From contig BOLA01000001.1 in assembly GCA_016861265.1 (NCBI GenBank), positions 203,569 through 267,568 on the forward strand: a stretch of 64,000 bases of DNA. The letters run 5' to 3'. The notes under the pieces were generated by a model. It saw nothing but the letters and a program-made list of their open reading frames with translations. It ran no database searches and was not told where the DNA came from. Made by a program: the position numbers and the translations under genes. This stretch comes from Patescibacteria group bacterium (GTDB lineage: Bacteria; Patescibacteriota; Dojkabacteria; J137). Of this stretch, positions 1,675-61,076 are shown one piece after another (the stretch's first letter is position 1; each line of letters begins with the position of its first letter).

Positions 1675-2867
1675 CTTTAAGCCAAGACATACTTAGAAAA
1701 ATGCTGGAGCTACCGCACAGAATGGCGGGTACTACTTACGAACAGAAGGCAGCTGAATACATAAAAAATGTTTACGCCTACTTCGGTGTAACCGCAAAAG
1801 AAGTTCCTTCTTCTACTCTATCTCACAGTTTTCAAAACCACCTAATAATAAGTTTTGCATTAATAATGCTTACAATAGTGGTTAATTTTTTAGGAATAGC
1901 ATTAATAACAATTCCTTTATTTATATTTACAGTTCTTGTTTATTTAAGATTATTTAACTTGCCGTTTAGATTTTTTAAGAAGAGAACACAATCTCAAAAT
2001 ATTTATGCTGAAATACCTGCAAAAGACAAGCAAAAGTACACACTGGTTTTCACTAGTCACTACGATACAAGCGGCGATTTAGGCCCTCTGGTATCGATTT
2101 TAGGGCCAATATATAACTATATGCGTACATCCTCAGGGTTAAATATTCCTGAATACTTAAATAACGTACTAATTTTACCGAACTTATCTTTAGGATTAAC
2201 ATTGTTAGCACTATTCATTCCAGATAATTCCGCTAAGTTTTTCTTCGGCATTTTTGCGGCTATACCACTACTGACAGGGATTTTCTTCTTGAACAAGAGT
2301 AAAAAGAAACCTACACTGGGAGCCTACGATAACGGAGTAGGAACATCGTTATTAGTTGAACTTGCGGCGTTCTTTAATAAAAATCCGCTTGATAATACAA
2401 GACTGATTTTTGCAAATGTTGCAGCAGGAGAAACCTTAACAAGGGGAACTATACCATTGCTCAATTCACTAAACTTGGAAAAGGTTAATACATTTATTGT
2501 AGACCTTGAATGCATAGGTGAGGAACAACTTACACTAGTAAGTAGTGAGCCATCCTACCCTATTGGCTTACCTGTTCCTTTTGATTCAACATTCGAAGTA
2601 ATTGCAGATTTTGCCCAGGATTTTTTTCAGGATGATTTTAAGGTTGTTGACTCTCCATTACCTAGCGCAAACCAGGACCTAATTATAAATGGATATAGAG
2701 TCACGGCTATTGTTACTACTATGCCAAAAAATGGTTATCCTAAAAGGTTTCACTCCTCCAAGGACTATTTTGAGAGTATAAAATGGGATAAAGTAGAAAA
2801 TATTAGAGACTTTATTATCGGTTACTGTAGCTATTTTGATGATGTAAGCAAGGAAGTAATACTTTAA
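1671..2867 (+). CDS. membrane-anchored M28-family-like zinc peptidase (putative)
   Basis: TM helices at the N-terminus; FTSHYDT and AYDNGVGTSLLVELA resemble M28 aminopeptidase metal-binding motifs (H.D ... DNG.G..LLEL); 4-nt overlap with the upstream ORF. Confidence 0.5.
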   Translation: MTLSQDILRKMLELPHRMAGTTYEQKAAEYIKNVYAYFGVTAKEVPSSTLSHSFQNHLIISFALIMLTIVVNFLGIALITIPLFIFTVLVYLRLFNLPFRFFKKRTQSQNIYAEIPAKDKQKYTLVFTSHYDTSGDLGPLVSILGPIYNYMRTSSGLNIPEYLNNVLILPNLSLGLTLLALFIPDNSAKFFFGIFAAIPLLTGIFFLNKSKKKPTLGAYDNGVGTSLLVELAAFFNKNPLDNTRLIFANVAAGETLTRGTIPLLNSLNLEKVNTFIVDLECIGEEQLTLVSSEPSYPIGLPVPFDSTFEVIADFAQDFFQDDFKVVDSPLPSANQDLIINGYRVTAIVTTMPKNGYPKRFHSSKDYFESIKWDKVENIRDFIIGYCSYFDDVSKEVIL

Positions 2868-3847
2868 TATAGCGTTACTAAACAAATTTCCGCATCTGTA
2901 TTAATTCTTAACCTGCTGCCAGAATGTCCAATACCCTGAGATAGTAGCAGCTTTGTATTTTTGTTAATCTGGAATATACCTTTAGTTAACCATCTTCTTT
3001 TAGTAGGCATAGGAAGAACTGCTCCAATTATAGGCATATAAATCTGACCGGAATGATTATGGCCGCTCAGAATTAAATCTATATTGTCATTTTCTGAAAT
3101 AAAATCGATTACATCTGGGTTATGCGATAAAAGTATATTTACGGCGCCTTTCTCTGAACCTTCAAATGCCTTTTCAATATTAAATGTTTTTGAATATAGA
3201 TCAGGAATTCCTGCGATATTTAATTTAGTTCCGCTAATTGTTTGAATTGTATTATTGTTAATTAACAGTTGAATATTTGATTTTGAAAATGCATTAATAA
3301 ATTCTGTTGGAATATTATATTCGACCTTATCTTCTAGATACTCTGCATCGTGATTACCGTAAACTGCATAGACCCTCCCTTTTATATTTTTTAGTTGCTC
3401 TAATAGTTCCGGCTCTATGTCGTGAGTTAAAAAATCTCCTCCTAGCAATACTAAATCCTGATTTTGATTGTTAATTGTCTGAATAATCTTGTTAAGTCTT
3501 TTAGTGTTAGTACTCGCATATTCCTTGCCTACATGAAGATCGCTTACAAACAAGAATTGAACTTCTTTTTTTAGCCCTATATCGATTTTATATTCATTAA
3601 TTTTTATTCTATAAAACTTAATAAAAATGTAATAAAAAAAGAAGAGCTGTAATGAGAATAAAATTACTGAGAGTATAAGCAACTGCGATGAAAGAGAAAA
3701 AGCAAAAGTAATAAAGATTACAAATAACCCAGAAATCAATCCCGAGAAATCAATTGTAGGTCCCATTAACTTACGAAATCTTGCCATTGCACCTTTTCTT
3801 GGCATTAAAACAAGCTTATCTATATTTTCTTTTGAAAATCTATCCAT
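2864..3847 (-). CDS. membrane-anchored calcineurin-like metallophosphoesterase
   Basis: signature motifs DLHVG, GGDF, GNHD and SGHNHSG in order; N-terminal TM segments. Confidence 0.75.
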   Translation of the reverse strand: MDRFSKENIDKLVLMPRKGAMARFRKLMGPTIDFSGLISGLFVIFITFAFSLSSQLLILSVILFSLQLFFFYYIFIKFYRIKINEYKIDIGLKKEVQFLFVSDLHVGKEYASTNTKRLNKIIQTINNQNQDLVLLGGDFLTHDIEPELLEQLKNIKGRVYAVYGNHDAEYLEDKVEYNIPTEFINAFSKSNIQLLINNNTIQTISGTKLNIAGIPDLYSKTFNIEKAFEGSEKGAVNILLSHNPDVIDFISENDNIDLILSGHNHSGQIYMPIIGAVLPMPTKRRWLTKGIFQINKNTKLLLSQGIGHSGSRLRINTDAEICLVTLY

Positions 3848-3940
3848 AGTTTTTAGTGTGAACCAGGATATTTTATAGTTGTTTGAAGTTTATGTAAACA
3901 GAAAGTACATGGCGGGGGTGTTTATTCCCCGCCACATTTG

Positions 3941-3953
3941 CTGAATGAACTAC
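3941..3953. repeat. left 13-bp inverted repeat (CTGAATGAACTAC) at the island boundary; overlaps the stop codon of the 3950-5068 gene
   Basis: exact reverse-complement match to 8274-8286. Confidence 0.7.
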
Positions 3954-5068
3954 TGATTGAAGCAGGAACGAATCTCTGCTTCGCTGGGTAGGTCGTAGAA
4001 GTTGTATGTTAGTACCCCTTGATTTATTGCCCTATCCCGCTGATTCTCCATTCGATCATAAAATCCTACAGCCCACCAGAATGGACCATTGAACCCAAAA
4101 CTTTCGCCAAATTCCTGCATAAATTGACAGGTACCGGCGTAGTAACGAGTCTGTGCTGAGAAATCACGTCTTCCTCCATTGTTACCATTCCATGGTGTAA
4201 TGAAGGAACCAACCCGAGGAGTCACACCTACCTCCGCAAACATTATCGGCATATTGAGCCGATCGTGGTAACTGCGGAGATATGGTAACCACTCTTGCCA
4301 TGCATAGTAAATGTCCGTTGATGTGGCATCGTTGCCAATGCCATGTAGATCAAAGAACGCATCCACCATTAACACGTCAAGAGAAGGTGCAAACCCCGGT
4401 AACTCAGAAACTGGCGTCCAGTTCTTCGCGTATGTTACATTCCCGGAATACACTGCACGAACGCTCGCAATTAGCTGATTCCATCTATCGGTGTACCTTT
4501 GCTGGTCCTTATCAAGAGATTCCATCTCTGCACCGATAATTAACCCTAGCGCGCGTTCTTCTTCCGCTATCGCTGCATATTTAAGGATTAGGGCTCCGTA
4601 ATTGGCGAACCATTCGTCCAGTGCAGCATCGTTAAAATCACCACCCGGTACAATTGCACCTCGCCACGTCCCGGTTCTTTCGTCGTCTATGAGAGGCTTA
4701 AGCCAGACATAGTATCCTCTTGACCTTCCCTCCCGAAGAAAGATACGAATGTTTTCCTCGGATGGTGTAAGCAGAGGATCTTCATACAGAACCGTTGTTG
4801 TGGCTCCGTCTTGAAAGATCGGGAATGTAAAGATAATTGAGTTTACCCCCAATTCCCTACTATCAAGATCATCGAAAAACGCGACTGTATTGCCCTGCAT
4901 GGTAGTATCGTTCCCATACAGAACAACCGATATCCCTTTTTGATAGGGGATTTGCGTCCCGATTGGAATTGGATTGTACTCTTCTGTTGGAGGGCCTTCT
5001 TGGGCATTCACTGGCAATGGAGCCAGTGCGATCACCAGTAGAATTAGAATACTGAGAATCCTAAGCAT
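3950..5068 (-). CDS. secreted protein, putative glycoside hydrolase / polysaccharide-processing enzyme (TIM-barrel-like)
   Basis: cleavable signal peptide MLRILSILILLVIALAPLPVNAQE; aromatic- and acidic-rich; last gene of an operon with the GT2 synthase. The hydrolase call comes from context and composition only. Confidence 0.4.
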   Translation of the reverse strand: MLRILSILILLVIALAPLPVNAQEGPPTEEYNPIPIGTQIPYQKGISVVLYGNDTTMQGNTVAFFDDLDSRELGVNSIIFTFPIFQDGATTTVLYEDPLLTPSEENIRIFLREGRSRGYYVWLKPLIDDERTGTWRGAIVPGGDFNDAALDEWFANYGALILKYAAIAEEERALGLIIGAEMESLDKDQQRYTDRWNQLIASVRAVYSGNVTYAKNWTPVSELPGFAPSLDVLMVDAFFDLHGIGNDATSTDIYYAWQEWLPYLRSYHDRLNMPIMFAEVGVTPRVGSFITPWNGNNGGRRDFSAQTRYYAGTCQFMQEFGESFGFNGPFWWAVGFYDRMENQRDRAINQGVLTYNFYDLPSEAEIRSCFNQ

Positions 5069-5089
5069 TTGACCTCCAGAGGAGGGGTT

Positions 5090-6517
5090 TTACCCCTCCA
5101 TATTATCGCCCTTGTGATGTGTCTTCGACCAGCCTTGTGCAGCCTTGTTGGATTTCAGGAACTGATAGACTGCCACATAACCGGCTATTGAAATCAGCAG
5201 CCAGTAAAGTGGAGCAAACAGTCCCATTATCACATTCGAGTAGTTCTTCGTTCTGAATGCGGCAGTCTTAAGCATGTACACGTACATGTAGTTTCCCGCC
5301 GAGAAACAGAACATTGCCACGTAGAAAATAAGCGGAGGATAGAGCTGCTGAATAAACTCTGAGTGGGTAACAGCATAGATAGCCGTCATTCCCCAAAACA
5401 CAGGGTTTACCAGGTAAAGTACAAGCGGCGCACCAATAACGTACTGAAACCCGACAAAGCCTTTCCAACCAAGTTCTTGCTGAAGCCTGATTGGGTTACG
5501 CATATGTCGGAAGTACGTTTGGATAGCCCCCTTTATCCATCTACTCCGCTGTTTTACCATATCGAAAGCATTCTCGACAGCTTCTTCTGACGTGATCGAG
5601 TCGAGAACCAATGTGCTATAACCGAGTCTCGCAAACTTAACAGCGAGATCCATGTCTTCCGTTACGTTGAGGGAATCCCAACCTCCCACCTCGCGTATTG
5701 CACTAGTGAGAATGTAGTTGGAGGTTCCTCCAAGAGGTGACACCAACCCTAGTCGAGTTAGTCCGGGCAGCATTATTGAGAAATGCTGCAAGTAGTCCAG
5801 ATTCAACATCCTGGTAACCCAGGAACGATTAGCGTTTTGACTGAACGCAAGACGTGCCTGAACGCAGACCAGATGTGGATTATTGACCACTTCTCGGAAG
5901 TAGCTAACCATTGCCTTTCTGGGCTGCAATTTATCGGGCTTGTCTTCACTGTCAAATACGACGGTAAAATCGCTTCGCCAGTGAACGTAACCCTGGTCGA
6001 ACAGGTAGTTCATTGCCGCAGGTTTGGTCTTGGCCCCTCCTTTCGGACGAACAATAACCTTGAAATGCTTTGGAAGAGCAAGCTGAGTATATGCCTCGAT
6101 TGTGGCAAAATCCCCCTCTTCCAATACGATTAGAACCTGCATACGATTCTTCGGATAGTTCAGCTCCCATATGCTTTTAACAATTTGGCGAGCCACTGCT
6201 GGTTCCACATATGACGGAACAATCACGGTGATGTACGGAAATTCGTTAAGAGCTAATGCCTCTGAGTCATCAACTGCCACTAAGCTTCCTTCCTTCATGC
6301 CACTGACAGCGACAATGGAGGAAAATACGAACATTGAAGCGAAGAACAGTGTTGACAACGCTACGAATCCCTGCAAGTACTGTAGGAGTGTTAGCTGTAA
6401 CACCAACCCCAACATCACCGATCCTATACCCAGTGCAACAATGAAGCCCAGTTGAGACTTGCTCATACGAACTTCTGCACCAGGCCCGAATACTGCCCCC
6501 GAATTCAATTGATCCAT
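5090..6517 (-). CDS. processive family-2 glycosyltransferase (cellulose / PNAG / chitin-synthase-like polysaccharide synthase)
   Basis: N-terminal TMs, catalytic core with VVFDSEDKPD (DxD), GGTSNY, VTEDMDLA (TED) and QRSRWIKG (QxxRW), then C-terminal TM helices. Confidence 0.85.
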   Translation of the reverse strand: MDQLNSGAVFGPGAEVRMSKSQLGFIVALGIGSVMLGLVLQLTLLQYLQGFVALSTLFFASMFVFSSIVAVSGMKEGSLVAVDDSEALALNEFPYITVIVPSYVEPAVARQIVKSIWELNYPKNRMQVLIVLEEGDFATIEAYTQLALPKHFKVIVRPKGGAKTKPAAMNYLFDQGYVHWRSDFTVVFDSEDKPDKLQPRKAMVSYFREVVNNPHLVCVQARLAFSQNANRSWVTRMLNLDYLQHFSIMLPGLTRLGLVSPLGGTSNYILTSAIREVGGWDSLNVTEDMDLAVKFARLGYSTLVLDSITSEEAVENAFDMVKQRSRWIKGAIQTYFRHMRNPIRLQQELGWKGFVGFQYVIGAPLVLYLVNPVFWGMTAIYAVTHSEFIQQLYPPLIFYVAMFCFSAGNYMYVYMLKTAAFRTKNYSNVIMGLFAPLYWLLISIAGYVAVYQFLKSNKAAQGWSKTHHKGDNMEG

Positions 6518-6532
6518 GTTGTCTGCCTTGTC

Positions 6533-8233
6533 TTATTGCGCTAACTTGTAGATGTGATAGAGTTCGTTTTCAAAGACCAAGACGTAATGGTCAATGAAAG
6601 ATTGCTGATTCCGAACAGTTGTCCATACACGATCTTCAGCAAAACCGGAGTATGGGCCTCTCATTACAATCCACTCCATCTGATTTGCATATGGAGCGTT
6701 TAGAACTGGTTCCCAAAGTCGATATGTACCCTCGTAAGTTATGTTTCCAAGGTTAATACCGCTTAGGAACTGTAGCTGCTCATTTCCGTAGGCTTCCAAC
6801 AACATTGTCCCGTTATCGTAGTTATCACCCAGCCATTCAGCAGCCTCTATTTGAAGCTGGCTGAACACGTAGGATGATGCACGTTGTGGTTCGATTAGTG
6901 TTGTAATCCCCGGATCCTGAAACAGTGCAAACTGCGAGAAGAGTACACAACCTCCAACAATAACTGCCAGCACTCGGCTTCTCCTAACTAAGTAACCCAC
7001 CATTGGGGCCACAGTCAGAATTATGATGAGTGCAAAGCGAATGTTGTAGAGAGTGTCCTCTGTCTGCATAACCTGCATGGGTCTTTGACCTTTGTAGATC
7101 ATAAACCCGAAGAACGGGATCATCACCAATGGCAGTAACGGAGCAAATGATTCCCTACGCAATCTGGTTGAGACCACGTAAATGAATAGACCTATTACAG
7201 CCAATACAACCACCATGCCAATGGTATCCCAGATCCCCCACCCGTAGGTCAGGAAAGCAACCCTAAGGTTTCCAAACCCGGCTTCTCTTCCCGAAACCCA
7301 ATTGCTGGGTGAGGAATAGGTACCGTTTTGAAACTCCAAAGGGTTACCAAAGATTGTCATATTCCAGACAATCCAGCCTATGACTCCGGCTAGTGCAACA
7401 AAACCCCACTCAGCCAGATGTCCCACTAGGTCCCAGAAGCGCACTCTGTTGCGAAGTAACACGTATGTGTAGATAGCAGCTTCCGCCACCACAATTACCC
7501 ATCCTTCGTAACGGATGGTACACATAATCACGCTTGCTACTCCATTCCAGAAGAGCCACTTATGGTTTGACGGTTCCTTACAAAGTTTCCAGAACGTGTA
7601 CATCGACAGCAATACCCCAAAATACATGGGAATTTCCGTCATTGATGTACTTTGCAGATACAGTACGTTTGGGTTGAGCATCAATACCATCCATGCGATT
7701 ACAGCGGCATATGTGCTATTAGTCAGTTCAAAGACGAACTTGAACATGTAATAGCCCATGACCAAATAGCAGAACATGGATACTGCGATCATTCCCAAGC
7801 CATGCGAGTAAAAGACGTTAGTCCGCAAAACACCCACAGTAAGCAGGTAGAGAGTCGTACAAATACCAATTACCACCCACCGAAACAATACAGTCCAACC
7901 TTTAAGCAGTCGGCGAATTGCAACAATGGACAGAACCAGTCCAAGTGCCAAAAAGATCGATCCGTATATGGTGTTTGACCAGATATCGGAGCAAACCAAT
8001 GGCAGACTTGCCAAATGGGTCAACGGTAGCCATACTGCCCCTAGCTGTGCAAGCCCGGGTGATGTACTATCGCAAACCCTGCGAGCGATCAATAGATGTG
8101 CCTGTGTATCGAAGTGGAGAAATCCCACATCGTTAACAGTCACAAGGGTAAAGCATACTACCGACAGCAGAAATGCAACTGCCATCAGAGTAGGCACGAT
8201 CCTTCTGGGCATTTGCCCAATACCTTCATTCAT
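6533..8233 (-). CDS. polytopic integral membrane protein (about 12-14 TM; possible GT-C-fold glycosyltransferase or polymer export/modification protein)
   Basis: 566 aa with many hydrophobic helices; GGAGG Shine-Dalgarno 8 nt upstream of the ATG; first gene of the island operon. Confidence 0.55.
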   Translation of the reverse strand: MNEGIGQMPRRIVPTLMAVAFLLSVVCFTLVTVNDVGFLHFDTQAHLLIARRVCDSTSPGLAQLGAVWLPLTHLASLPLVCSDIWSNTIYGSIFLALGLVLSIVAIRRLLKGWTVLFRWVVIGICTTLYLLTVGVLRTNVFYSHGLGMIAVSMFCYLVMGYYMFKFVFELTNSTYAAVIAWMVLMLNPNVLYLQSTSMTEIPMYFGVLLSMYTFWKLCKEPSNHKWLFWNGVASVIMCTIRYEGWVIVVAEAAIYTYVLLRNRVRFWDLVGHLAEWGFVALAGVIGWIVWNMTIFGNPLEFQNGTYSSPSNWVSGREAGFGNLRVAFLTYGWGIWDTIGMVVVLAVIGLFIYVVSTRLRRESFAPLLPLVMIPFFGFMIYKGQRPMQVMQTEDTLYNIRFALIIILTVAPMVGYLVRRSRVLAVIVGGCVLFSQFALFQDPGITTLIEPQRASSYVFSQLQIEAAEWLGDNYDNGTMLLEAYGNEQLQFLSGINLGNITYEGTYRLWEPVLNAPYANQMEWIVMRGPYSGFAEDRVWTTVRNQQSFIDHYVLVFENELYHIYKLAQ

Positions 8234-8273
8234 TTTCAGAACCTCCTCAGGTCTGTTTTATGATTTTCTTATG

Positions 8274-8286
8274 TAGTTCATTCAGT
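8274..8286. repeat. right 13-bp inverted repeat (GTAGTTCATTCAG) at the island boundary, about 40 nt upstream of the operon start
   Basis: exact reverse complement of 3941-3953. Confidence 0.7.
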
Positions 8287-8464
8287 TGTAAACGAACCTG
8301 TGATGAACAAGATTCATTCACATTAGCGCTGATTTTACCATAAAACAGGTGTACATTGCTATATAAAAGCTATATAGGATAATTAAAGTACCCCTCCTAT
8401 TTTCTACTTGAAATTACAATACTAAAAGTTAGATAATCACGAGCTTACCCTTTTAAAAACTTTT

Positions 8465-9334
8465 ATGGATACATTAACAATACCCGACGGACTTGAAGTA
8501 GCGAGAGTTAAATCCGAGAAACTATCTGCAGAACCAAACTTTTTAGAGTATCTAGAATTTACCGACAGAAAGATTAATCAAATCTGCTACGAAGTTTTGC
8601 ACAATATTATAAAAGCAGTGGGAGAAGGCCGCACAGTGAATTTAATTGTCCCCTTGAACGGAGGTTTGCTTTTCTATAGAAAACTAATGGAATTGTTCAG
8701 CAATCTCGAACTTTCTACTAATGCATTAAACATTATTTTCTGTGATGAAGACGAAAGTGACAGATTACTTTTTTCACAGGAACCGTTAGATGTTACTAAT
8801 GCATACAACATTGTAATAGACGATATCTGGGATAAAGGAGGTACCGGAAGCGAAATAATCGAGGAGCTAAGAACATTTGGAGCCGTAGATACATTGGATT
8901 ATTTCGCATTCTGCCGAAAAGAAAGCTCTCCAACCCAGAACAATGGTGCCAGATTAGCAAATATGGATTCAGTAACTATATTCGAAGATAGGTGGTTACA
9001 CAACTGGGGAGGAATGAACAGCAGTCTTTTTAAAGATAGACCTAGGGTCACGGCACTAGAACGTACAAGTTTTCTGCCGCTCGTACCTTTACCTGAGTAC
9101 TTACAAGTAAAATTTAATACTCAAGATCCATTTACTGTTGATGCCTATATGGATTTGTTGACACAAACTAATTTAGCTGTAAACGGTGTAATACCTATTG
9201 AGGTATTTAACGATGTATTATTCCTTGAAGAAAACCCAAGTCTTGTAACAAGATTCGACTACATGACCAAACTACATGCAAGAATTGCTCAATCTATTGA
9301 AACTAGTAAAATAAAAGTGGATAGAGAAGGTTAA
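8465..9334 (+). CDS. phosphoribosyltransferase-fold (PRTase type I) domain protein
   Basis: NLIVPLNGGLLF and IVIDDIWDKGGTGSEI match the PRPP-binding loop pattern (V.DD..DTG.T). Confidence 0.5.
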   Translation: MDTLTIPDGLEVARVKSEKLSAEPNFLEYLEFTDRKINQICYEVLHNIIKAVGEGRTVNLIVPLNGGLLFYRKLMELFSNLELSTNALNIIFCDEDESDRLLFSQEPLDVTNAYNIVIDDIWDKGGTGSEIIEELRTFGAVDTLDYFAFCRKESSPTQNNGARLANMDSVTIFEDRWLHNWGGMNSSLFKDRPRVTALERTSFLPLVPLPEYLQVKFNTQDPFTVDAYMDLLTQTNLAVNGVIPIEVFNDVLFLEENPSLVTRFDYMTKLHARIAQSIETSKIKVDREG

Positions 9335-9346
9335 TAATCAAAATTT

Positions 9347-9375
9347 TTGTTAAAATCATTATAGATAAATATATA
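9347..9375 (+). promoter_or_regulatory. possible promoter for proS
   Basis: TTGTTA, 17 nt, TATATA; an AAGGA ribosome-binding site 2 nt before the ATG. Confidence 0.3.
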
Positions 9376-9389
9376 TTAACGACCCAAGG

Positions 9390-11084
9390 ATGAGATATTC
9401 TGCAATGTTTGGCAAAACACAGAAAGATGCACCAAGCGATGCAACACTGAGCTCGCACAAATTACTACATAAAGGAGGCTTTATTAGAGAGTCTACCGCA
9501 GGCAGATATTATATGTTGCCCTTGGGAATAAGAGTGCAGCAAAAAATAATTAATGTAATAAGAGAGGAAATGGATAAATCAGGCGCACAAGAGTTAATTA
9601 CTCCTGTTTTACATCCTTTAGAATTATGGCAAGAAACTAACAGAACAAATACAACAGGATTTGAGTTATCAGTTATTACTGATAGAAGAGGGGCTAAATT
9701 TGCGTTAGGTGGAACTGCAGAAGAGATGATGGTTGACTTAGTTAGGAAGTTTCAAATCAGCTATAAAGATCTACCATTTAACATTTATCAATTTTCTACT
9801 AAATTCAGAGACGAACTAAGAGCAAGAGGAGGACTATTAAGGGTGAGAGAATTTATAATGAAAGACGCGTATTCGTTTAGTACTGATGAAGATCAGTTCA
9901 AAGCTGAATACAAAAATATGTGGGAAACATATTTAAGGATTTATAGAAGATTAGGATTGGAACCATTGGTTGTAGAAGCTGATAATGGTTACATTGGAGG
10001 AGAGTATTGTCATGAATTTCAGGTTGAAAGTGAGATTGGAGAAGGAAAATTTTTTATAAGCGAAGACGGACAATACGTAGCTCATGAAGATGTAGCTAAA
10101 TTTATTGTAGAAGATAAAAATATTAACGAAGATCTAAAAGAGATGCAAGAGGTTGAAGCCATTCGAGGCAACACAATGGAAGATGGAGTAAAGCTACATG
10201 GCTTACCGGATTGGCAACAAATGAAAGATGTAATGTTTACCGATTCGGAAGGAAAACTTTACTTAGCTGTAATCAGAGGCGATTTAGACGTAAATAAAAC
10301 CAAGCTAGAGCACGTATTAAATAAAGTAGGACAACTAGACTCTGCAACTGAAGAACAGATTAGAGAAATAGGCAGCGAGCCTGGATTTATTTCACCAGTG
10401 GGTTTGGAAGGCAAAGTGTTCATAGTTACAGATAAATCAGTTAGAACTGTTCATAACTTTTACGGAGGCTCAAATAAAAAGCATAGAGATATTCTTAATA
10501 TTAATATAGATAGAGATTTTAAAGCTGACCTTGAAGCAGATATTGCATTAGCTCAAAATGGATTTGAATCTATTGATAGCCACGGAAAATTAATTGAGAA
10601 AAGAGGAATTGAAGTTGGAAATATTTTTCAGTTAGGTTATCACTATACTACATTAATGAACAACTCGACTTATACAGATGTAGATGGCGAACAAAAAAAA
10701 TATTATATGGGTTGTTATGGAATTGGAGTAGGTAGAACATTAGCAACAATTGTAGAAAAATACCACGATGATAAAGGTATTATCTGGCCAGAAGAAATAG
10801 CACCTTATACTGTCCATCTTATCGGCTTAAATCTTGAGGATGAAGCCATAAAGAGTAAAGCAGAAGCAATTTACCAAGTATTACAGAAAATGGGAGTAGA
10901 AGTGTTGTTTGACGATAGAACAGATACAATGGCTGGTGAAAAATTTGCAGATTCAGATTTAATAGGAATTCCCTATAGAGTTGTTGTTTCAAAAAGAACT
11001 GGTGAGGGAGTAGAGCTAAAATTAAGAAATCAAAAGGAATCTAAGAATATTTCCCTTGAGGAATTAGTGGAAACACTTAAGTAA
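9390..11084 (+). CDS. proS: prolyl-tRNA synthetase
   Basis: 564 aa; class II aaRS motifs; the N-terminal SHKLLHKGGFIRESTAGRYYMLPLGIRV region is typical of bacterial ProRS. Confidence 0.95.
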   Translation: MRYSAMFGKTQKDAPSDATLSSHKLLHKGGFIRESTAGRYYMLPLGIRVQQKIINVIREEMDKSGAQELITPVLHPLELWQETNRTNTTGFELSVITDRRGAKFALGGTAEEMMVDLVRKFQISYKDLPFNIYQFSTKFRDELRARGGLLRVREFIMKDAYSFSTDEDQFKAEYKNMWETYLRIYRRLGLEPLVVEADNGYIGGEYCHEFQVESEIGEGKFFISEDGQYVAHEDVAKFIVEDKNINEDLKEMQEVEAIRGNTMEDGVKLHGLPDWQQMKDVMFTDSEGKLYLAVIRGDLDVNKTKLEHVLNKVGQLDSATEEQIREIGSEPGFISPVGLEGKVFIVTDKSVRTVHNFYGGSNKKHRDILNINIDRDFKADLEADIALAQNGFESIDSHGKLIEKRGIEVGNIFQLGYHYTTLMNNSTYTDVDGEQKKYYMGCYGIGVGRTLATIVEKYHDDKGIIWPEEIAPYTVHLIGLNLEDEAIKSKAEAIYQVLQKMGVEVLFDDRTDTMAGEKFADSDLIGIPYRVVVSKRTGEGVELKLRNQKESKNISLEELVETLK

Positions 11085-11136
11085 TTGACCAAATTAACCT
11101 AATAAAGTTATTATCAAAGTAATTTAGTTAATACTT

Positions 11137-11616
11137 ATGTCACGCTTACCTGAACCCAAAGATAACATAGACCTATATAGATTTAGCCGGAGTAAATCGG
11201 GGAAATTAATACACACTTATATTGAAGCGGGCTTACTATCTAACGAAGATTTAAATAATCAAGATGTAATTGATTTTATAAATAATTCTGAACTTTGGAC
11301 ACTAACGGGATTATCAGTGGGCGACGAAGTCTTTATAGTTGATGATATTAATCCTAGACAAATGATTAGAGCAAAAGTTGTATACGCGGGAAGCTTTGTT
11401 ACCCTAGCATATAACGACAAGACTCTTGTTAACACCCCAGGAGTCAGCCTAAAGGCTAGACACTCATTTCCTAGAAATTTACTGCAAAGGGGTATACAAG
11501 CAGTACTACCTATGCATATAGACATTATTGATTTAGCCTCAACTCAAAAAATCTTCAGAGTTATAAATGAGGAAGTTGTCGAAAATAATGAGCCAAGATT
11601 TATATTGGAAGCTTAA
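11137..11616 (+). CDS. hypothetical protein
   Basis: 159-aa ORF; no recognisable domain. Confidence 0.45.
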   Translation: MSRLPEPKDNIDLYRFSRSKSGKLIHTYIEAGLLSNEDLNNQDVIDFINNSELWTLTGLSVGDEVFIVDDINPRQMIRAKVVYAGSFVTLAYNDKTLVNTPGVSLKARHSFPRNLLQRGIQAVLPMHIDIIDLASTQKIFRVINEEVVENNEPRFILEA

Positions 11617-13464
11617 TTACTTTCTAAAATTTACTAAAGATTTAGTATCTAATACCTCGAACTTATCCACATAGGTTCTCATCCACATTTCTGTAATAAA
11701 GACTCTCCAGAAGAATAAAACATCTCCCTTAATTTTATTTTCCAGAGCAAGTTTAAAGTTCTGTAGTACTAAGTCAGCCTTCCAAAACGGCCTGGATTTA
11801 AAAGTATCGGATTCGAATACATCTATAAACTTTTGTTGCCTTCGTTCTATCCATTCCCATTCAGGGTTTGTAAAACCAATTTTACTTCGTCTTAATCTGT
11901 TTTTCTCAGGAATTAGGCCTTTCATAGCTTCTCTATAGATATGTCTTGTCCAACCATTCTTTATCTTTTGATCAATAGGCAAATTAAAAATATATTCCAC
12001 AACCATGTGGTCGAAGAAAGGAACCCGGGACTCAAGAGAGTTCGCCATTGAATTCTTGTCTTCATACCTTAAAAGCGATGGTGTAGTCAAGGATGTAACG
12101 TCCTCAAACAATCTTTTATTTAGATTTCTAGTTGCCTGTGGTCTTATGAACTCAGTATTATTTGTATTTACAATCATCTGATTAGGATTGATTGTATTTT
12201 CTTTTTTGAGTTTTTGTATTAACTTATCCACAAAGAATTTAGTGTACAGATCTTTTCCTGCGACTGTTTCTCTGAATGCTTCCAGAACTTTTCCGTTATC
12301 GATTGCACTTTGCAAGTAGGTCATAAAGTAAGGAATATAACCGGCCAGAAGCTCATCGCCGCCTTGACCAGTTAGTAGTACAGTTACATGTTTTCTAGCT
12401 TCCCTCATTACCGTGTAGTAAGCATATGGTGCAGTACTAATTACAGGTTCTTCTTGAAAATATACCCAATTATCCATTTCATTCCAGAAGTTACCCACAT
12501 TTGGAGTCATTTTAATTGATTCAACTCCAGTAGCTTCCACAATATTGTCTATGTATTCTTCCTCGTTTATTGTTTCTCCCGGATGAACTGCGGAAAATGA
12601 GTAAAGTTTTGTATCAGGATGATTCTCTTTATATAATTTTGCTGCAATTGAAGTAATTCCACTTGAATCAAGTCCACCCGATAATGTTACTCCAACAGGT
12701 ACATCTGCTATTAAATGTAACTTTATTGCCTCAATAAAAATATCTCTAAACTCTTTCGAATATTCCGCATCTGATTTTTCTGAAGCAAACTTTGTTGAGT
12801 AAGTCGGATTCCAATACTTCTCTATTTGAAACTCTCCTGTATTATTAATTACCATATAGTGACCTGGCAGTAGTCTCTTTATATTCTTAAAAAATGTATC
12901 TTGATTTGTATCGTGAATTCTAGCAGTTAAAAATTTATACAGTGAATCCTGGTCAACTTCTCGATTAATATTAAATCCAGAGAGTAAACCCTTAATTTCT
13001 GATCCGAATACTACTCTACCGTCCACCTGAGTATAATATAGTGGTTTAATACCGAGTCTATCTCTTGCGATAAAGAGTTCATCCTTTTTCTTATTGTATA
13101 AAACAATCACAAACATTCCTCTTAAATGGTTTACTACTTTTTCACCCCATTCTTCGTACCCATGCGCAATAACTTCAGTATCAGATTCACTACTAAAGTT
13201 ATGGCCTAACTCTTCAAGCTCTTCTCGCAGTGCTTGATAATTATAAATCTCTCCATTATTCATTACCTGAATTGTTTTATCTTCGTTTGTTAGTGGATAT
13301 AGACCCATTGTAAGGTCAATAATTGCAAGTCTTCTATAACCCACCGAAAAATTATCATTCACTACTCTTCCACCGTCATCGGGACCTCGGTGAAATATAG
13401 ATTCAGTCATTTTATCTAGAGTTTGATTATCTGGTTTGCCCGAAAAGCCAACAATTCCGCACAT
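11617..13464 (-). CDS. asnB: asparagine synthetase (glutamine-hydrolysing)
   Basis: MCGIVGF Ntn-amidotransferase start and the SGGLDSS PP-loop. Confidence 0.9.
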   Translation of the reverse strand: MCGIVGFSGKPDNQTLDKMTESIFHRGPDDGGRVVNDNFSVGYRRLAIIDLTMGLYPLTNEDKTIQVMNNGEIYNYQALREELEELGHNFSSESDTEVIAHGYEEWGEKVVNHLRGMFVIVLYNKKKDELFIARDRLGIKPLYYTQVDGRVVFGSEIKGLLSGFNINREVDQDSLYKFLTARIHDTNQDTFFKNIKRLLPGHYMVINNTGEFQIEKYWNPTYSTKFASEKSDAEYSKEFRDIFIEAIKLHLIADVPVGVTLSGGLDSSGITSIAAKLYKENHPDTKLYSFSAVHPGETINEEEYIDNIVEATGVESIKMTPNVGNFWNEMDNWVYFQEEPVISTAPYAYYTVMREARKHVTVLLTGQGGDELLAGYIPYFMTYLQSAIDNGKVLEAFRETVAGKDLYTKFFVDKLIQKLKKENTINPNQMIVNTNNTEFIRPQATRNLNKRLFEDVTSLTTPSLLRYEDKNSMANSLESRVPFFDHMVVEYIFNLPIDQKIKNGWTRHIYREAMKGLIPEKNRLRRSKIGFTNPEWEWIERRQQKFIDVFESDTFKSRPFWKADLVLQNFKLALENKIKGDVLFFWRVFITEMWMRTYVDKFEVLDTKSLVNFRK

Positions 13465-28977: not shown

Positions 28978-29442
28978 ACGGGGCCCACTCCAAAGAATCG
29001 CGTTTGGGTCTTAAGGCAACTTAAAAACCCAAATGAGGAAAGTCTGGACTCCATTGCGGTCTCGACTGGCAGTTCTGCTGCCGAGTTCAAGCTGTAAAAA
29101 GCTTTAATTTCGAGATAGACACCCTTAACTAAAAAGTAATTAAAAGGCCATGGTTTAAGAAGTAATTCAAGGGTTTTGGCCCGCTAAGCTTTATAGGTAT
29201 GGGCTGGGAGCAATCTTAGGGAGAAAAGGGCAACAGAGAACAAACAACCGACAGCTAGTTTAGTAATATGTACGTGATATTACTAATGCTAACTGAAGGT
29301 AAAGGTGAAAAGGTGGGGTAAGAGCCCACCGACTTTAGTAGTAATACTAAGGTGCAGGCAACCCCTGTCTGGAGCAACCAAATATTTGGGCAATAGATAA
29401 ATGATTCTTTAAACAGAATCCGGCTTATGGATGGACCCCCGT
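28978..29442 (+). ncRNA. rnpB: RNase P RNA (bacterial type A-like)
   Basis: universal motifs GAGGAAAGTCTGGACTCC (P4 5' strand), GGTGAAAAGGTGGGGTAAGAGCCCACC (P10-P12) and ACAGAATCCGGCTTAT (P4 3' strand) in the correct order; the ends are approximate. Confidence 0.85.
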
Positions 29443-29443
29443 T

Positions 29444-60174: not shown

Positions 60175-61076
60175 AACCAATTCTTGGGCACAGCTTTGAA
60201 GACAAGTTCCTCTCCACTCATATTCTTAATCTTAAGTGTGTGGGAATGTAGAAGCACTCTATTATATGGCACTCCATTATATAAGGTATCGCCTACTATA
60301 GGATATCCTAAACTTGCCAAGTGCACTCTAATTTGGTGAGTTCTTCCTGTATGTGGAATAACTCTTAGCTGGCTAAATTCATATTCGCCCATTTGTAAGT
60401 TTTTCTGGAAGAAAATATCAGTTTCGGCATACTCATTTTTTAATGAGTCTATTGCAACCCTATACCTAAAACCTTCCGGACTCTTGCCTATAAAACCACT
60501 AATTTTAATAAATGTCTGGCCTCTTAACTCATCATTAAAGTCACCTTTAACAACTGCCCAATACTCTTTAGCTACCTCTCTTTTCTTGAATTGCCTTGAA
60601 TAGAAGTTATGACTTTCAAGATTTTTACTGAATAGAATTACACCCGAAGTCTCTTTATCTAATCTATTCACTGGCCTTATTCTACTAAACGGGCTATCAC
60701 TATTTTGAATATGATATATTAGCCCATTCATTAAAGTATCGTTTAGATGATTATAGGATGGGTGTACTACTACGCCCTCCGCTTTATTAACCACAATGAT
60801 ATCGTCATCTTCGAATAGAATGTCTAATTCCATTTTTACAGGCTCAATCTCTGTAATTGTTGTCTGCGCTATATAATCCTTTAGCGCCTGTTCGTCAAAG
60901 GTTATTAGATCGCCTTCAACTAATATCTTATTGAATTTTGTGAATTCCCCGTTGACCTTTACTACCTTACTTAAGATAAGTTTTTTGACTGTGGATCTAG
61001 ATAAGGTCGGATAAACAATGCCAATATAAGAATCTAGTCTAGTTCTTTTTTTTAGATTTTCTGCTTTAATTTCCAT
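60153..61076 (-). CDS. rluD: RluA-family 23S rRNA pseudouridine synthase (RluD-like)
   Basis: N-terminal S4 domain and the HRLDKETSGVILFSK catalytic-Asp motif. Confidence 0.9.
   Translation of the reverse strand: MEIKAENLKKRTRLDSYIGIVYPTLSRSTVKKLILSKVVKVNGEFTKFNKILVEGDLITFDEQALKDYIAQTTITEIEPVKMELDILFEDDDIIVVNKAEGVVVHPSYNHLNDTLMNGLIYHIQNSDSPFSRIRPVNRLDKETSGVILFSKNLESHNFYSRQFKKREVAKEYWAVVKGDFNDELRGQTFIKISGFIGKSPEGFRYRVAIDSLKNEYAETDIFFQKNLQMGEYEFSQLRVIPHTGRTHQIRVHLASLGYPIVGDTLYNGVPYNRVLLHSHTLKIKNMSGEELVFKAVPKNWFQETDSL

Follow-up and report, generated by a model that had tools for sequence, protein, structure and literature searches.

An old, replaceable, putative surface-glycan operon of Dojkabacteria whose inverted repeat may pair the two ends of its mRNA

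The window analysed here, a stretch of 64,000 nucleotides (nt) of contig BOLA01000001.1 from a member of the Dojkabacteria (assembly GCA_016861265.1, positions 203,569 to 267,568), carries on its minus strand a block of three G+C-rich genes, which encode in transcriptional order a GT-C-superfamily membrane glycosyltransferase, a processive GT2 glycan synthase and a secreted GH113-family glycoside hydrolase. The arms of a perfect 13-nt inverted repeat lie in the leader and at the end of this block. The Dojkabacteria, formerly candidate division WS6, belong to the candidate phyla radiation (CPR). Comparison of the locus with its counterparts in related strains and lineages indicates that the block (3947..8390, minus strand) is one allele of a replaceable surface-glycan operon, old at its position, which appears to be swapped whole between strains. 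The limits given are the breakpoints of identity with a near-conspecific strain, and they enclose the predicted promoter, the leader, all three genes and, of the downstream repeat arm, the inner part. The inverted repeat itself is proposed to form a helix between the 5'-untranslated region (UTR) and the 3'-UTR, by which the operon mRNA is closed, and for this reading as a whole a probability of about 0.6 is judged appropriate. An initial annotation of the stretch had instead presented the block as a horizontally acquired and possibly once-mobile cassette, delimited by the repeat.

The compositional step at the block is abrupt. In 400-nt windows the G+C fraction rises from 0.30–0.33 at 3201-4000 to 0.46–0.49 at 4001-8200, and has fallen to 0.34 by 8201-8600; the block as a whole stands at 46–48%, against 30–39% elsewhere in the window, where no 1-kb bin outside the island exceeds 0.40. 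The G+C fraction at third codon positions (GC3) of the three genes is 0.45, 0.52 and 0.50, equivalent to z-scores of +5.4, +7.7 and +7.1 relative to the 50 other genes of the window (0.269 ± 0.033), and the values for first and second codon positions (GC1 and GC2) are likewise raised. The jump across three minus-strand genes that had been reported at the outset is therefore upheld by both measures, at a level somewhat below the "about 50%" then given, and the lack of a significant deviation in composition or codon usage, which would have counted against the original proposal, did not materialise. The cassette is in this respect unlike its host genome, as a horizontally acquired island should be. 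Both island junctions are matched at 100% identity in independent Logan assemblies (L003 covering 2639-4019, and L005 covering 8113-11883), so the island is not an assembly chimera.

The clearest view of the cassette as an exchangeable unit is provided by L023, a 163-kb contig from another sample, and by L024, another contig belonging to that strain type. In the flanks the window shares 96.4% identity with L023 (over 5.4 kb) and with L024 (over 3.8 kb), and the bins at 3501-3900 and 8401-8900 reach 99–100% identity with L023, whereas in the cassette identity is 0.39–0.72 per 100-nt bin and about 60% overall at the nucleotide level. At base level, the left breakpoint falls at 3946/3947, inside the left repeat arm, which leaves the hairpin beyond the operon in the shared flank; the right breakpoint falls at about 8391, some 105 nt beyond the right arm and upstream of the predicted operon promoter. 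The repeat does not, then, delimit the variable block, as had been supposed. The GT2 proteins of the window and of its near-conspecific L023 share 58% of their amino acids, and all alleles are roughly equidistant (52–80%). Such deeply diverged alleles between conserved flank genes of close relatives are what is expected of a hypervariable glycan locus, and exchange between strains would proceed, as it does at O-antigen and capsule loci, through homologous recombination within the conserved flanks. Logan contigs L004, L024 and L026, which come from different runs or samples, all end exactly at 3946, and the two alleles were never recovered from one sample; the shared contig end probably reflects co-existing alleles that fork the assembly graph. 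The flanks themselves are not uniform: the metallophosphoesterase gene to the left of the cassette is mosaic with respect to L023, with 84–88% identity at 2901-3400 and 99–100% at 3501-3900, and there is a further dip to 88% at 9001-9100. This mosaic identity suggests recombination tracts in the cassette flanks.

The loci used for comparison were found mostly through exact-protein look-ups; scans with the gene on the right flank, which encodes a lineage-specific phosphoribosyltransferase-like (PRT-like) protein, yielded one locus among genome contigs and two among metagenome contigs, and the only named genome holding that gene is the Candidatus Dojkabacteria metagenome-assembled genome BIN12. 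The cassette occupies one fixed locus, with unchanged gene order, in at least six diverged Dojkabacteria lineages, represented beside the window by L006-L008/L015, L009, L010-L012, L016/L023/L025 and L029. The layout is PRT-like, GT-C, GT2, GH113, Metallophos, M28, DUF5995, L21, L27. Between lineages the cassette proteins are 54–74% identical, compared with 54–79% for the variable flank genes (M28, Metallophos and PRT), and the cassette is enriched in G+C in every one of them (GC3 of 0.39–0.52 versus 0.13–0.31 in the flanks). The metallophosphoesterase gene adjoins the cassette at every occupied locus and adjoins the PRT-like gene at the empty sites. Empty sites of this kind, whose presence in relatives had been named at the start as a check, were found in two lineages, BIN12 (L013/L014) and the more distant L018, in which Metallophos lies directly beside PRT with no bump in G+C; the distribution of the cassette is accordingly patchy. 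It had also been foreseen that relatives with the same genes at the same locus and of host-like composition would speak against acquisition: the first part of that expectation is realised, the second is not.

The same three genes occur together at two unrelated loci. In L027 they follow hrcA-grpE-dnaK. Genes for tRNAs are classic landmarks of island integration, and in L028, whose host has a G+C content of 47%, a tRNA-Lys gene (10586-10660) is located 160 nt downstream of the GH113 gene. The cassettes in L027 and L028 are also richer in G+C than their surroundings. Farther afield, the actinomycete Nonomuraea gerenzanensis (72% G+C) has a GT-C and GT2 pair whose products are 32% and 37% identical to the window proteins. 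Foreign composition, empty sites, copies at other loci and the actinomycete pair argue together for horizontal transfer, and the horizontal origin and exchange of the cassette are accordingly real. In the Nonomuraea record (L030, NZ_LT559118), an almost unannotated 11.85-Mb "plasmid", the GT-C homologue lies at 8392144-8393664, with its 32% identity extending over 98% of the protein, and is followed directly by the GT2 homologue and then by a short-chain dehydrogenase gene, without a GH113 gene.

At the window locus, signs of recent mobility are wanting. No Pfam match to an integrase, transposase or recombinase was found within 10 kb of the cassette at any annotated locus; neither a tRNA gene nor direct repeats accompany it in the window, L028 being the only locus with a tRNA gene (tRNA-Lys) nearby; and IMG/VR viral contigs, among which no relatives of the GT-C protein were found, give no hint that a phage served as vector. 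The idea of a horizontally acquired block thus retains its support from composition, empty sites and other loci, and loses its claim to a recent arrival, given at least six lineages with the cassette at the same locus, a divergence like that of the variable flank genes, and silent sites near saturation. The cassette is thus mobile horizontally over long time-scales and yet old at this locus: it would have entered long ago between the metallophosphoesterase and PRT-like genes, where it now exists as deeply diverged alleles. The accompanying premise that acquisitions are rare in such genomes is outdated, as horizontal transfer is reported to account for up to 13% of the length of Patescibacteria genomes (PMC12455944).

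The age of the cassette makes its base composition all the more striking. At 4-fold degenerate sites of conserved residues, identity between cassette alleles, the window–L023 pair included, is 0.21–0.35, where 0.24–0.28 is expected at saturation; the flank genes of the window and L023 agree at 0.79–0.88 of such sites. The G+C fraction at 4-fold sites is nevertheless about 0.25–0.45 in the cassette alleles (mostly 0.32–0.45), compared with 0.13–0.26 in the flanks, and across hosts of 33%, 38% and 47% G+C the cassette follows its host with a positive offset. Standard amelioration reasoning holds that such a difference in composition should have been erased. Because silent sites are near saturation and the excess is nonetheless present in every allele, the G+C excess is a property that the cassette maintains, and not the scar of a recent import whose composition has yet to be ameliorated. 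It might stem from selection, acting on the structure of the mRNA or on the choice of codons, or else from import, repeated over time, out of unseen carriers richer in G+C. GC-biased gene conversion was considered as a cause and is unlikely, since the crossover flanks are not enriched in G+C.

The left arm of the inverted repeat, CTGAATGAACTAC, is at 3941-3953, and its exact reverse complement is at 8273-8285, a perfect match of 13 nt. The perfection of the repeat had been recognised from the beginning, with the right arm placed at 8274-8286, one position away from where it lies. Read in the sense of the mRNA, the 5' arm (CUGAAUGAACUAC; 8273..8285, minus strand) lies in the leader, 40–52 nt upstream of the ATG of the GT-C gene and about 27 nt upstream of the GGAGG, while the 3' arm (GUAGUUCAUUCAG; 3941..3953, minus strand) overlaps the stop codon of the GH113 gene (TAG, the complement of 3950-3952) and has its outer 6 nt (3941-3946) in the conserved flank. 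The coordinates bear out the original remark that one copy overlaps the last stop codon and the other is upstream of the ribosome-binding site. The chance expectation of about 1e-4 that was then attached to the repeat is too optimistic for the window taken alone, in which there are 99 perfect inverted repeats of at least 12 nt within 10 kb. When the two intergenic regions were subjected to mononucleotide shuffling, a match of at least 13 nt was seen in about 0–1 of 300 cases. Because 13-nt repeats are common in this AT-rich window, the repeat is convincing only through comparison with other alleles.

That comparison made use of exact-complement counts and ungapped scoring, together with the alignment of fixed-register segments of 16+16 nt. 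A perfect complement of 13–16 nt between the leader and the region following the GH113 gene is present in all five complete alleles, at homologous positions. The 5' arm is 41–57 nt before the GT-C ATG in the five, and reads CTGAATGAACTAC in the window, CTGAATAGAATGA in L023, ACTGAATAGAATC in L006, AACTGAATAGAATCGT in L009 and AAGTGAATAGAAAC in L010. The 3' arm lies 1–6 nt before a GC-rich hairpin, and in six of six visible alleles it begins within 3 nt of the stop codon, which it overlaps by 1–4 nt in five, while in L023 it starts 3 nt past the stop. The sixth of these alleles, L029, shows a matching 3' arm only, as its 5' end is absent. When the helix is taken as 16 pairs long, 87.5% of its cells form pairs, and among the five alleles 8 of the 16 pairs change on both sides; none of 500 shuffles reached any of the five pairing measures, and registers that were slid out of place were 24–49% paired. 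Both arms keep the outer 8 nt (AACTGAAT), and the inner 7 nt covary between alleles; the window and its near-conspecific L023 have different arm letters at 7 of 13 positions. Complementarity beyond chance, as required if a 5'-UTR is to interact with a 3'-UTR, is therefore present, and because the arms covary between alleles they point to selection for base pairing and not to decaying transposon ends. Each complete cassette locus has exactly two copies of the arm motif and no further copy in its 10-kb flanks, and window-wide the motif is at chance level, so it did not turn out to be the common genome-wide motif that had been listed as a danger to the original proposal. Four near-matches to CTGAATAGAAT are clustered within 225 nt inside a gene at 60596-60821, where there is otherwise only a weak 24-nt direct repeat; this cluster is probably a coincidence of coding sequence.

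The same data bear on the model with which the work began, in which the block is a recent, once-mobile cassette, the repeats are the decayed ends of a transposon, and the transposase has been lost. The atypical G+C content, the empty sites in relatives and the presence of the cassette at other loci (L027 and L028) would all be accommodated by such a history. The arms, however, are not at the boundaries of the variable block (3946/3947 and about 8391), no target-site duplication or direct repeat stands beside them in any allele, the three glycan enzymes are all that is encoded, and the arms do not travel with the cassette to the loci in L027 and L028. Decay would moreover lose complementarity, where 8 compensated positions are seen here, and the cassette is old at the window locus. 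Since a transposon or insertion sequence should have its repeats at the ends of the block, target duplications with a transposase, and repeats that travel with their cargo, and none of these was found, the once-mobile element marked by its repeat is largely refuted, and this model is hardly credible. It is scarcely more probable that the arms serve a DNA-binding regulator as a pair of operators, in the leader and at the end of the operon respectively, which would act by DNA looping, or else that they are a pure coincidence. The conservation of the outer 8 nt in both arms would suit an operator, and the commonness of 13-nt inverted repeats in the window would suit coincidence; but a shared regulator fails to explain the allele-specific, perfectly compensated changes of the inner 7 nt, above all where the window and L023 are compared, and coincidence is excluded by the recurrence at homologous positions in five alleles and by the outcome of the 500 shuffles. 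A dif/Xer-type module was also considered, and was set aside as the arms lack the 28-bp XerC-spacer-XerD layout and show no similarity beyond 13–16 nt.

A further explanation is an invertible segment of DNA. DNA-inversion phase variation of surface polysaccharides is well known in Bacteroides and in fim/hin-type systems, and the arms could be sites at which a site-specific recombinase encoded in trans flips the whole operon relative to an outside promoter, turning the surface glycan ON or OFF. Perfect inverted repeats of 13–16 bp do bracket the segment, their covariation is strictly Watson-Crick with no G-U pairs, a predicted promoter is located just outside the 5' arm, and the division of each arm into a conserved outer half and a covarying inner half resembles a protein-binding element beside a crossover region that needs identity. 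Such an inverton is nonetheless unlikely. All 13 of the contigs that show a junction, from at least 10 samples, have a single orientation, albeit that assemblies report the majority state; no Pfam match to a recombinase lies within 10 kb of the cassette at the annotated loci; and no second inverted binding element is found past the variable part, so the arms are not a complete tyrosine-recombinase core site. The two near-conspecific strains would be expected to have the recombinase in common, and yet 7 of the 13 positions in their arms are different; the contigs, moreover, break at the allele fork at 3946, not at the inner arm boundary at 3953/3954.

The proposal of a helix within the mRNA requires that both arms be transcribed together. 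A predicted extended -10 promoter element, TGGTAAAAT, inferred from its conservation, is located at 8332..8340 (minus strand): a TATAAT or TAAAAT box occupies the equivalent place in all five alleles, about 47–52 nt upstream of the 5' arm, and is preceded by the extended -10 TG in four of them, L023 having TAGTATAAT. The element does not appear in the consensus promoter scan, which requires a -35 element. The RNAalifold consensus of the five leaders places a hairpin (8299..8322, minus strand) at what is predicted to be the 5' terminus of the leader RNA; of the 12 pairs in its stem, 4 are kept through two-sided changes. Between this hairpin and the arm, and directly 5' of the latter, is a conserved leader box, CAGGTTCGTTTACAA (8286..8300, minus strand), the most conserved segment of the leader in the five-allele alignments; with the consensus CAGGTTCGTT(T/A)A(C/A)AA in the window, L006, L009, L010 and L023, it is also the most conserved non-coding stretch of the cassette. 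The 5' arm itself is locally unpaired. Six nt after the 3' arm there is a GC-rich hairpin, a putative terminator or 3' stabiliser (3910..3934, minus strand; -22.5 kcal/mol, z = -3.5), which is present in all alleles with differing, compensating stem sequences, though without a clean U-run behind it, and it is absent from the terminator-scan list. The genes are separated by gaps of only 15 and 21 nt. The placement of the -10 box, the 5' hairpin, the unpaired arm and the 3' hairpin leads to the prediction, in keeping with the short gene gaps, that both arms are on one mRNA of about 4.4 kb. No match to Rfam 15 was obtained for the leader or the 3' region (3800-8500) at the gathering threshold, nor anything credible at E≤10. 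The only Rfam family in the window is the bacterial class A RNase P RNA (28980-29443, 141 bits).

The duplexes formed by the arms have predicted energies of -18.2 to -23.4 kcal/mol in the five alleles, and the end-to-end helix appears in the minimum-free-energy folds of all five mRNAs, of 4.38–4.49 kb, with 13/13, 13/13, 11/13, 16/16 and 14/14 of its pairs; for the window all 13 of the arm pairs are formed in the fold of the 4420-nt mRNA. The covariation evidence would serve equally well if the pairing took place in trans, that is, if the 3' arm and terminator hairpin were released as a 3'-UTR-derived small RNA that paired with the leaders of other copies of the transcript and so provided feedback. 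An arm followed after 1–6 nt by a stable hairpin has the layout of a seed and terminator. No internal promoter or processing site is known, however, and the full-length folds already favour the helix in cis, so that this possibility, which sequence alone cannot separate from the other, is considered quite improbable.

Several findings weigh against the closing helix, or against the history proposed for the operon. The copies of the cassette in L027 and L028, which sit at other loci, have no such arms, so the cassette can exist without them. All 70 paired cells are Watson-Crick, without G-U pairs and without one-sided changes; RNA helices usually show some wobble pairs, and strict pairing would fit a requirement at the DNA level as well. 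Only five alleles have both arms, and as these share ancestry the significance suggested by the shuffle control is too high. For RNAs of 4 kb, minimum-free-energy folding is unreliable, and it takes no account of ribosomes. The transcript start, the 3' end and co-transcription are all predictions, and a weaker promoter-like sequence, TTTACA-18-GAAAAT (8263-8292), would place the 5' arm in its spacer and hence outside the RNA, although its -10 element is not conserved in other alleles. The mechanism that keeps the G+C excess is not explained by the model. Finally, the neighbour-joining tree of flank proteins is star-like, with the empty BIN12 lineage nested among cassette carriers, so that the empty site of BIN12 may be original or due to loss.

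If the closing helix is real, its action may be envisaged as follows. The arms would pair end to end, over 13–16 bp, in a tricistronic mRNA of about 4.4 kb, the 5' partner lying in a leader of about 95 nt. Once the full-length transcript existed, the helix would protect its AU-rich leader and its 3' end against ribonucleases, by analogy with the hbs mRNA discussed below, and it would be expected to be opened by a ribosome that terminates at the last stop codon, since the arm begins within 3 nt of that codon. The boundaries of the transcript, the pairing at the level of RNA, the effect on stability and the nature of the polymer are all inferred. It is tempting to go further, and to suppose that the helix, the 5' and 3' hairpins and the maintained G+C content make up a single closed-loop package, in which G+C enrichment would make the 4.4-kb RNA more structured and bring its ends together, so that only full-length transcripts are licensed and the package travels with the alleles as they are swapped; but this extension is put forward tentatively, and is on balance doubtful.

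The enzymes encoded by the cassette are consistent with the assembly of a surface glycan. The first gene (6533..8233, minus strand, with its ATG at 8233) is preceded by the Shine-Dalgarno sequence GGAGG (8242..8246, minus strand), which was read from the sequence and is kept in all alleles, and encodes a polytopic, PMT/ArnT-like membrane glycosyltransferase of 566 amino acids. The match of the window protein to Pfam PMT is under the gathering score (E=3.4e-4), but five of seven orthologues match PMT (best E=3e-6) and one matches PMT_2 (E=1.2e-7); profile and sequence searches found no relative of the protein in the PDB. The second gene (5090..6517, minus strand) encodes a processive β-glycan synthase of 475 amino acids, of the BcsA/PgaC/NodC type, with flanking transmembrane segments. 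The protein matches Pfam Glyco_tranf_2_3 and Glyco_trans_2_3 and PDB entries 4hg6 and 4p00 of BcsA (E of about 1e-5), and QRSRW, TED and DSED motifs can be read directly in its translation; because all its NCBIfam matches, to PgaC_IcaA and CelA, are far under the equivalog cut-offs, it is neither PgaC nor BcsA itself. The third gene (3950..5068, minus strand) encodes a 372-residue protein with an N-terminal signal peptide (...PVNA|QE) that matches Pfam GH113 (E=9.5e-38) and the endo-β-1,4-mannanases 7dv7, 4cd6 and 3civ in the PDB (E of about 1e-16). What characterises synthase-dependent exopolysaccharide systems is a processive GT2 of the membrane, bearing the motifs D,D,D,QxxRW and TED, in one operon with a cognate glycoside hydrolase or lyase. 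Both enzymes are present here, the hydrolase with a signal peptide, and the three genes together may be taken for a synthase-type surface-glycan operon, whose exposure at the surface is deduced from the enzyme families. That the polymer is a β-1,4-mannan-like glycan is only a guess, prompted by GH113 and PMT.

On the left, the conserved flank gene for the metallophosphoesterase (2864..3847, minus strand) has its own promoter-like site at 3870-3898; on the right, the divergent PRT-like gene (8465..9334, plus strand) has one at 8408-8437, and its product has 10 relatives among 5.8 billion proteins. Beyond the PRT-like gene there is a prolyl-tRNA synthetase gene of which two forms are met with at this one position (window 9390-11084; L006:5861-7108; L013:10896-12143). 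A 564-residue form with an editing domain is present in the window, L009, L010, L018 and L023, and a 415-residue form without it in L006 and BIN12; identity between the two forms is about 47%, and between the short forms of L006 and BIN12 it is 80%. This looks like the in-place replacement of an essential gene, in conflict with the relationships of the flank genes, by which L006 is closest to L009. On the other side of the locus, DUF5995 lies between M28 and L21 in the window, L009, L010 and L023, but in BIN12 the M28 peptidase gene comes directly after L21 (L013:7216-8915) and DUF5995 is apparently missing.

To our knowledge, strain-level swapping of surface-glycan cassettes has been described mainly in pathogens. 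The present locus indicates that swapping of this kind at a fixed position operates in ultra-small, uncultivated CPR bacteria as well, for which the cell surface is the interface with hosts and phages. A silent-site G+C fraction about 0.2 above that of the host, in spite of saturation, contradicts the usual expectation of amelioration; given such an excess at saturated sites, atypical composition is an unreliable clock for recent transfer. For those who scan genomes there is also a warning, that an island with an inverted repeat at its two ends is not necessarily a mobile element. As for interactions of the 5'-UTR with the 3'-UTR in bacterial mRNAs, we know of very few, all in short mRNAs that have been studied experimentally. 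Should the closed-loop reading prove true, this would be the first long-range 5'-3' closure of a bacterial mRNA with support from covariation across a multi-gene operon, and it would supply a selective reason why a block of genes never adopted the base composition of its host; natural compensatory evolution across a 4.4-kb operon also offers a clean system in which to study the effect of mRNA closure. Genomic islands in Patescibacteria were already known, and what gives this locus its interest is the swapping of alleles in the CPR, the covarying, operon-spanning complementarity and the silent-site G+C excess that resists amelioration.

Among known systems, hypervariable polysaccharide loci include the O-antigen rfb clusters of Escherichia coli and Salmonella, and the cps locus of Streptococcus pneumoniae between dexB and aliA. 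The present cassette resembles them in its fixed slot, conserved flanks, deeply diverged alleles, sharp breakpoints, atypical G+C content and cargo of glycosyltransferases. It differs in having three genes only, of the synthase type, with no Wzx/Wzy or ABC transporter; in having the same three orthologues in all alleles and not different sets of genes; in that its G+C content deviates upwards in an AT-rich genome; and in its reduced CPR host. As in the pairs BcsA and BcsZ for cellulose, and PgaC and PgaB for poly-N-acetylglucosamine, a membrane GT2 with QxxRW and TED motifs stands beside a secreted glycoside hydrolase, but here the hydrolase belongs to GH113, a β-mannanase family, and not to GH8 or GH153, the third gene encodes a PMT-like GT-C protein, and neither a PilZ/cyclic di-GMP module nor a co-polymerase was detected. 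With invertons such as fimS, the hin segment and the capsule promoters of Bacteroides it shares short perfect repeats, the link to glycans and a promoter just outside; it differs from them in that the repeats enclose a whole 4.3-kb operon and not a promoter, no flipped copy is seen in 13 contigs, and the arms differ between near-conspecifics. Like the genomic islands described in Patescibacteria (PMC12455944), the cassette is compositionally atypical and sporadic among relatives, but at the window locus it has no integrase or tRNA gene, and it is old and polymorphic in its alleles.

The closest parallels for the proposed helix are two mRNAs. In the Bacillus subtilis hbs mRNA a 14-bp interaction of the 5'-UTR with the 3'-UTR modulates cleavage by RNase Y (PMC5737220), and in Staphylococcus aureus the 3'-UTR of icaR pairs with the Shine-Dalgarno region, which blocks initiation and makes the mRNA a substrate of RNase III (PMC3868564). 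Those mRNAs are monocistronic and about 0.4–1 kb in length, whereas the helix proposed here would span a tricistronic mRNA of about 4.4 kb, in a CPR host, with a 3' arm that abuts the last stop codon; and the support for it is comparative, in the form of covariation, where theirs is experimental. In common with both, a short helix would join the leader to the stretch that comes right before the terminator hairpin of that same transcript, with 13–16 bp here and 14 in hbs. The 5' partner, finally, lies in an AU-rich leader and away from the Shine-Dalgarno sequence, as it does in hbs, and unlike icaR, where the Shine-Dalgarno sequence is itself the target.

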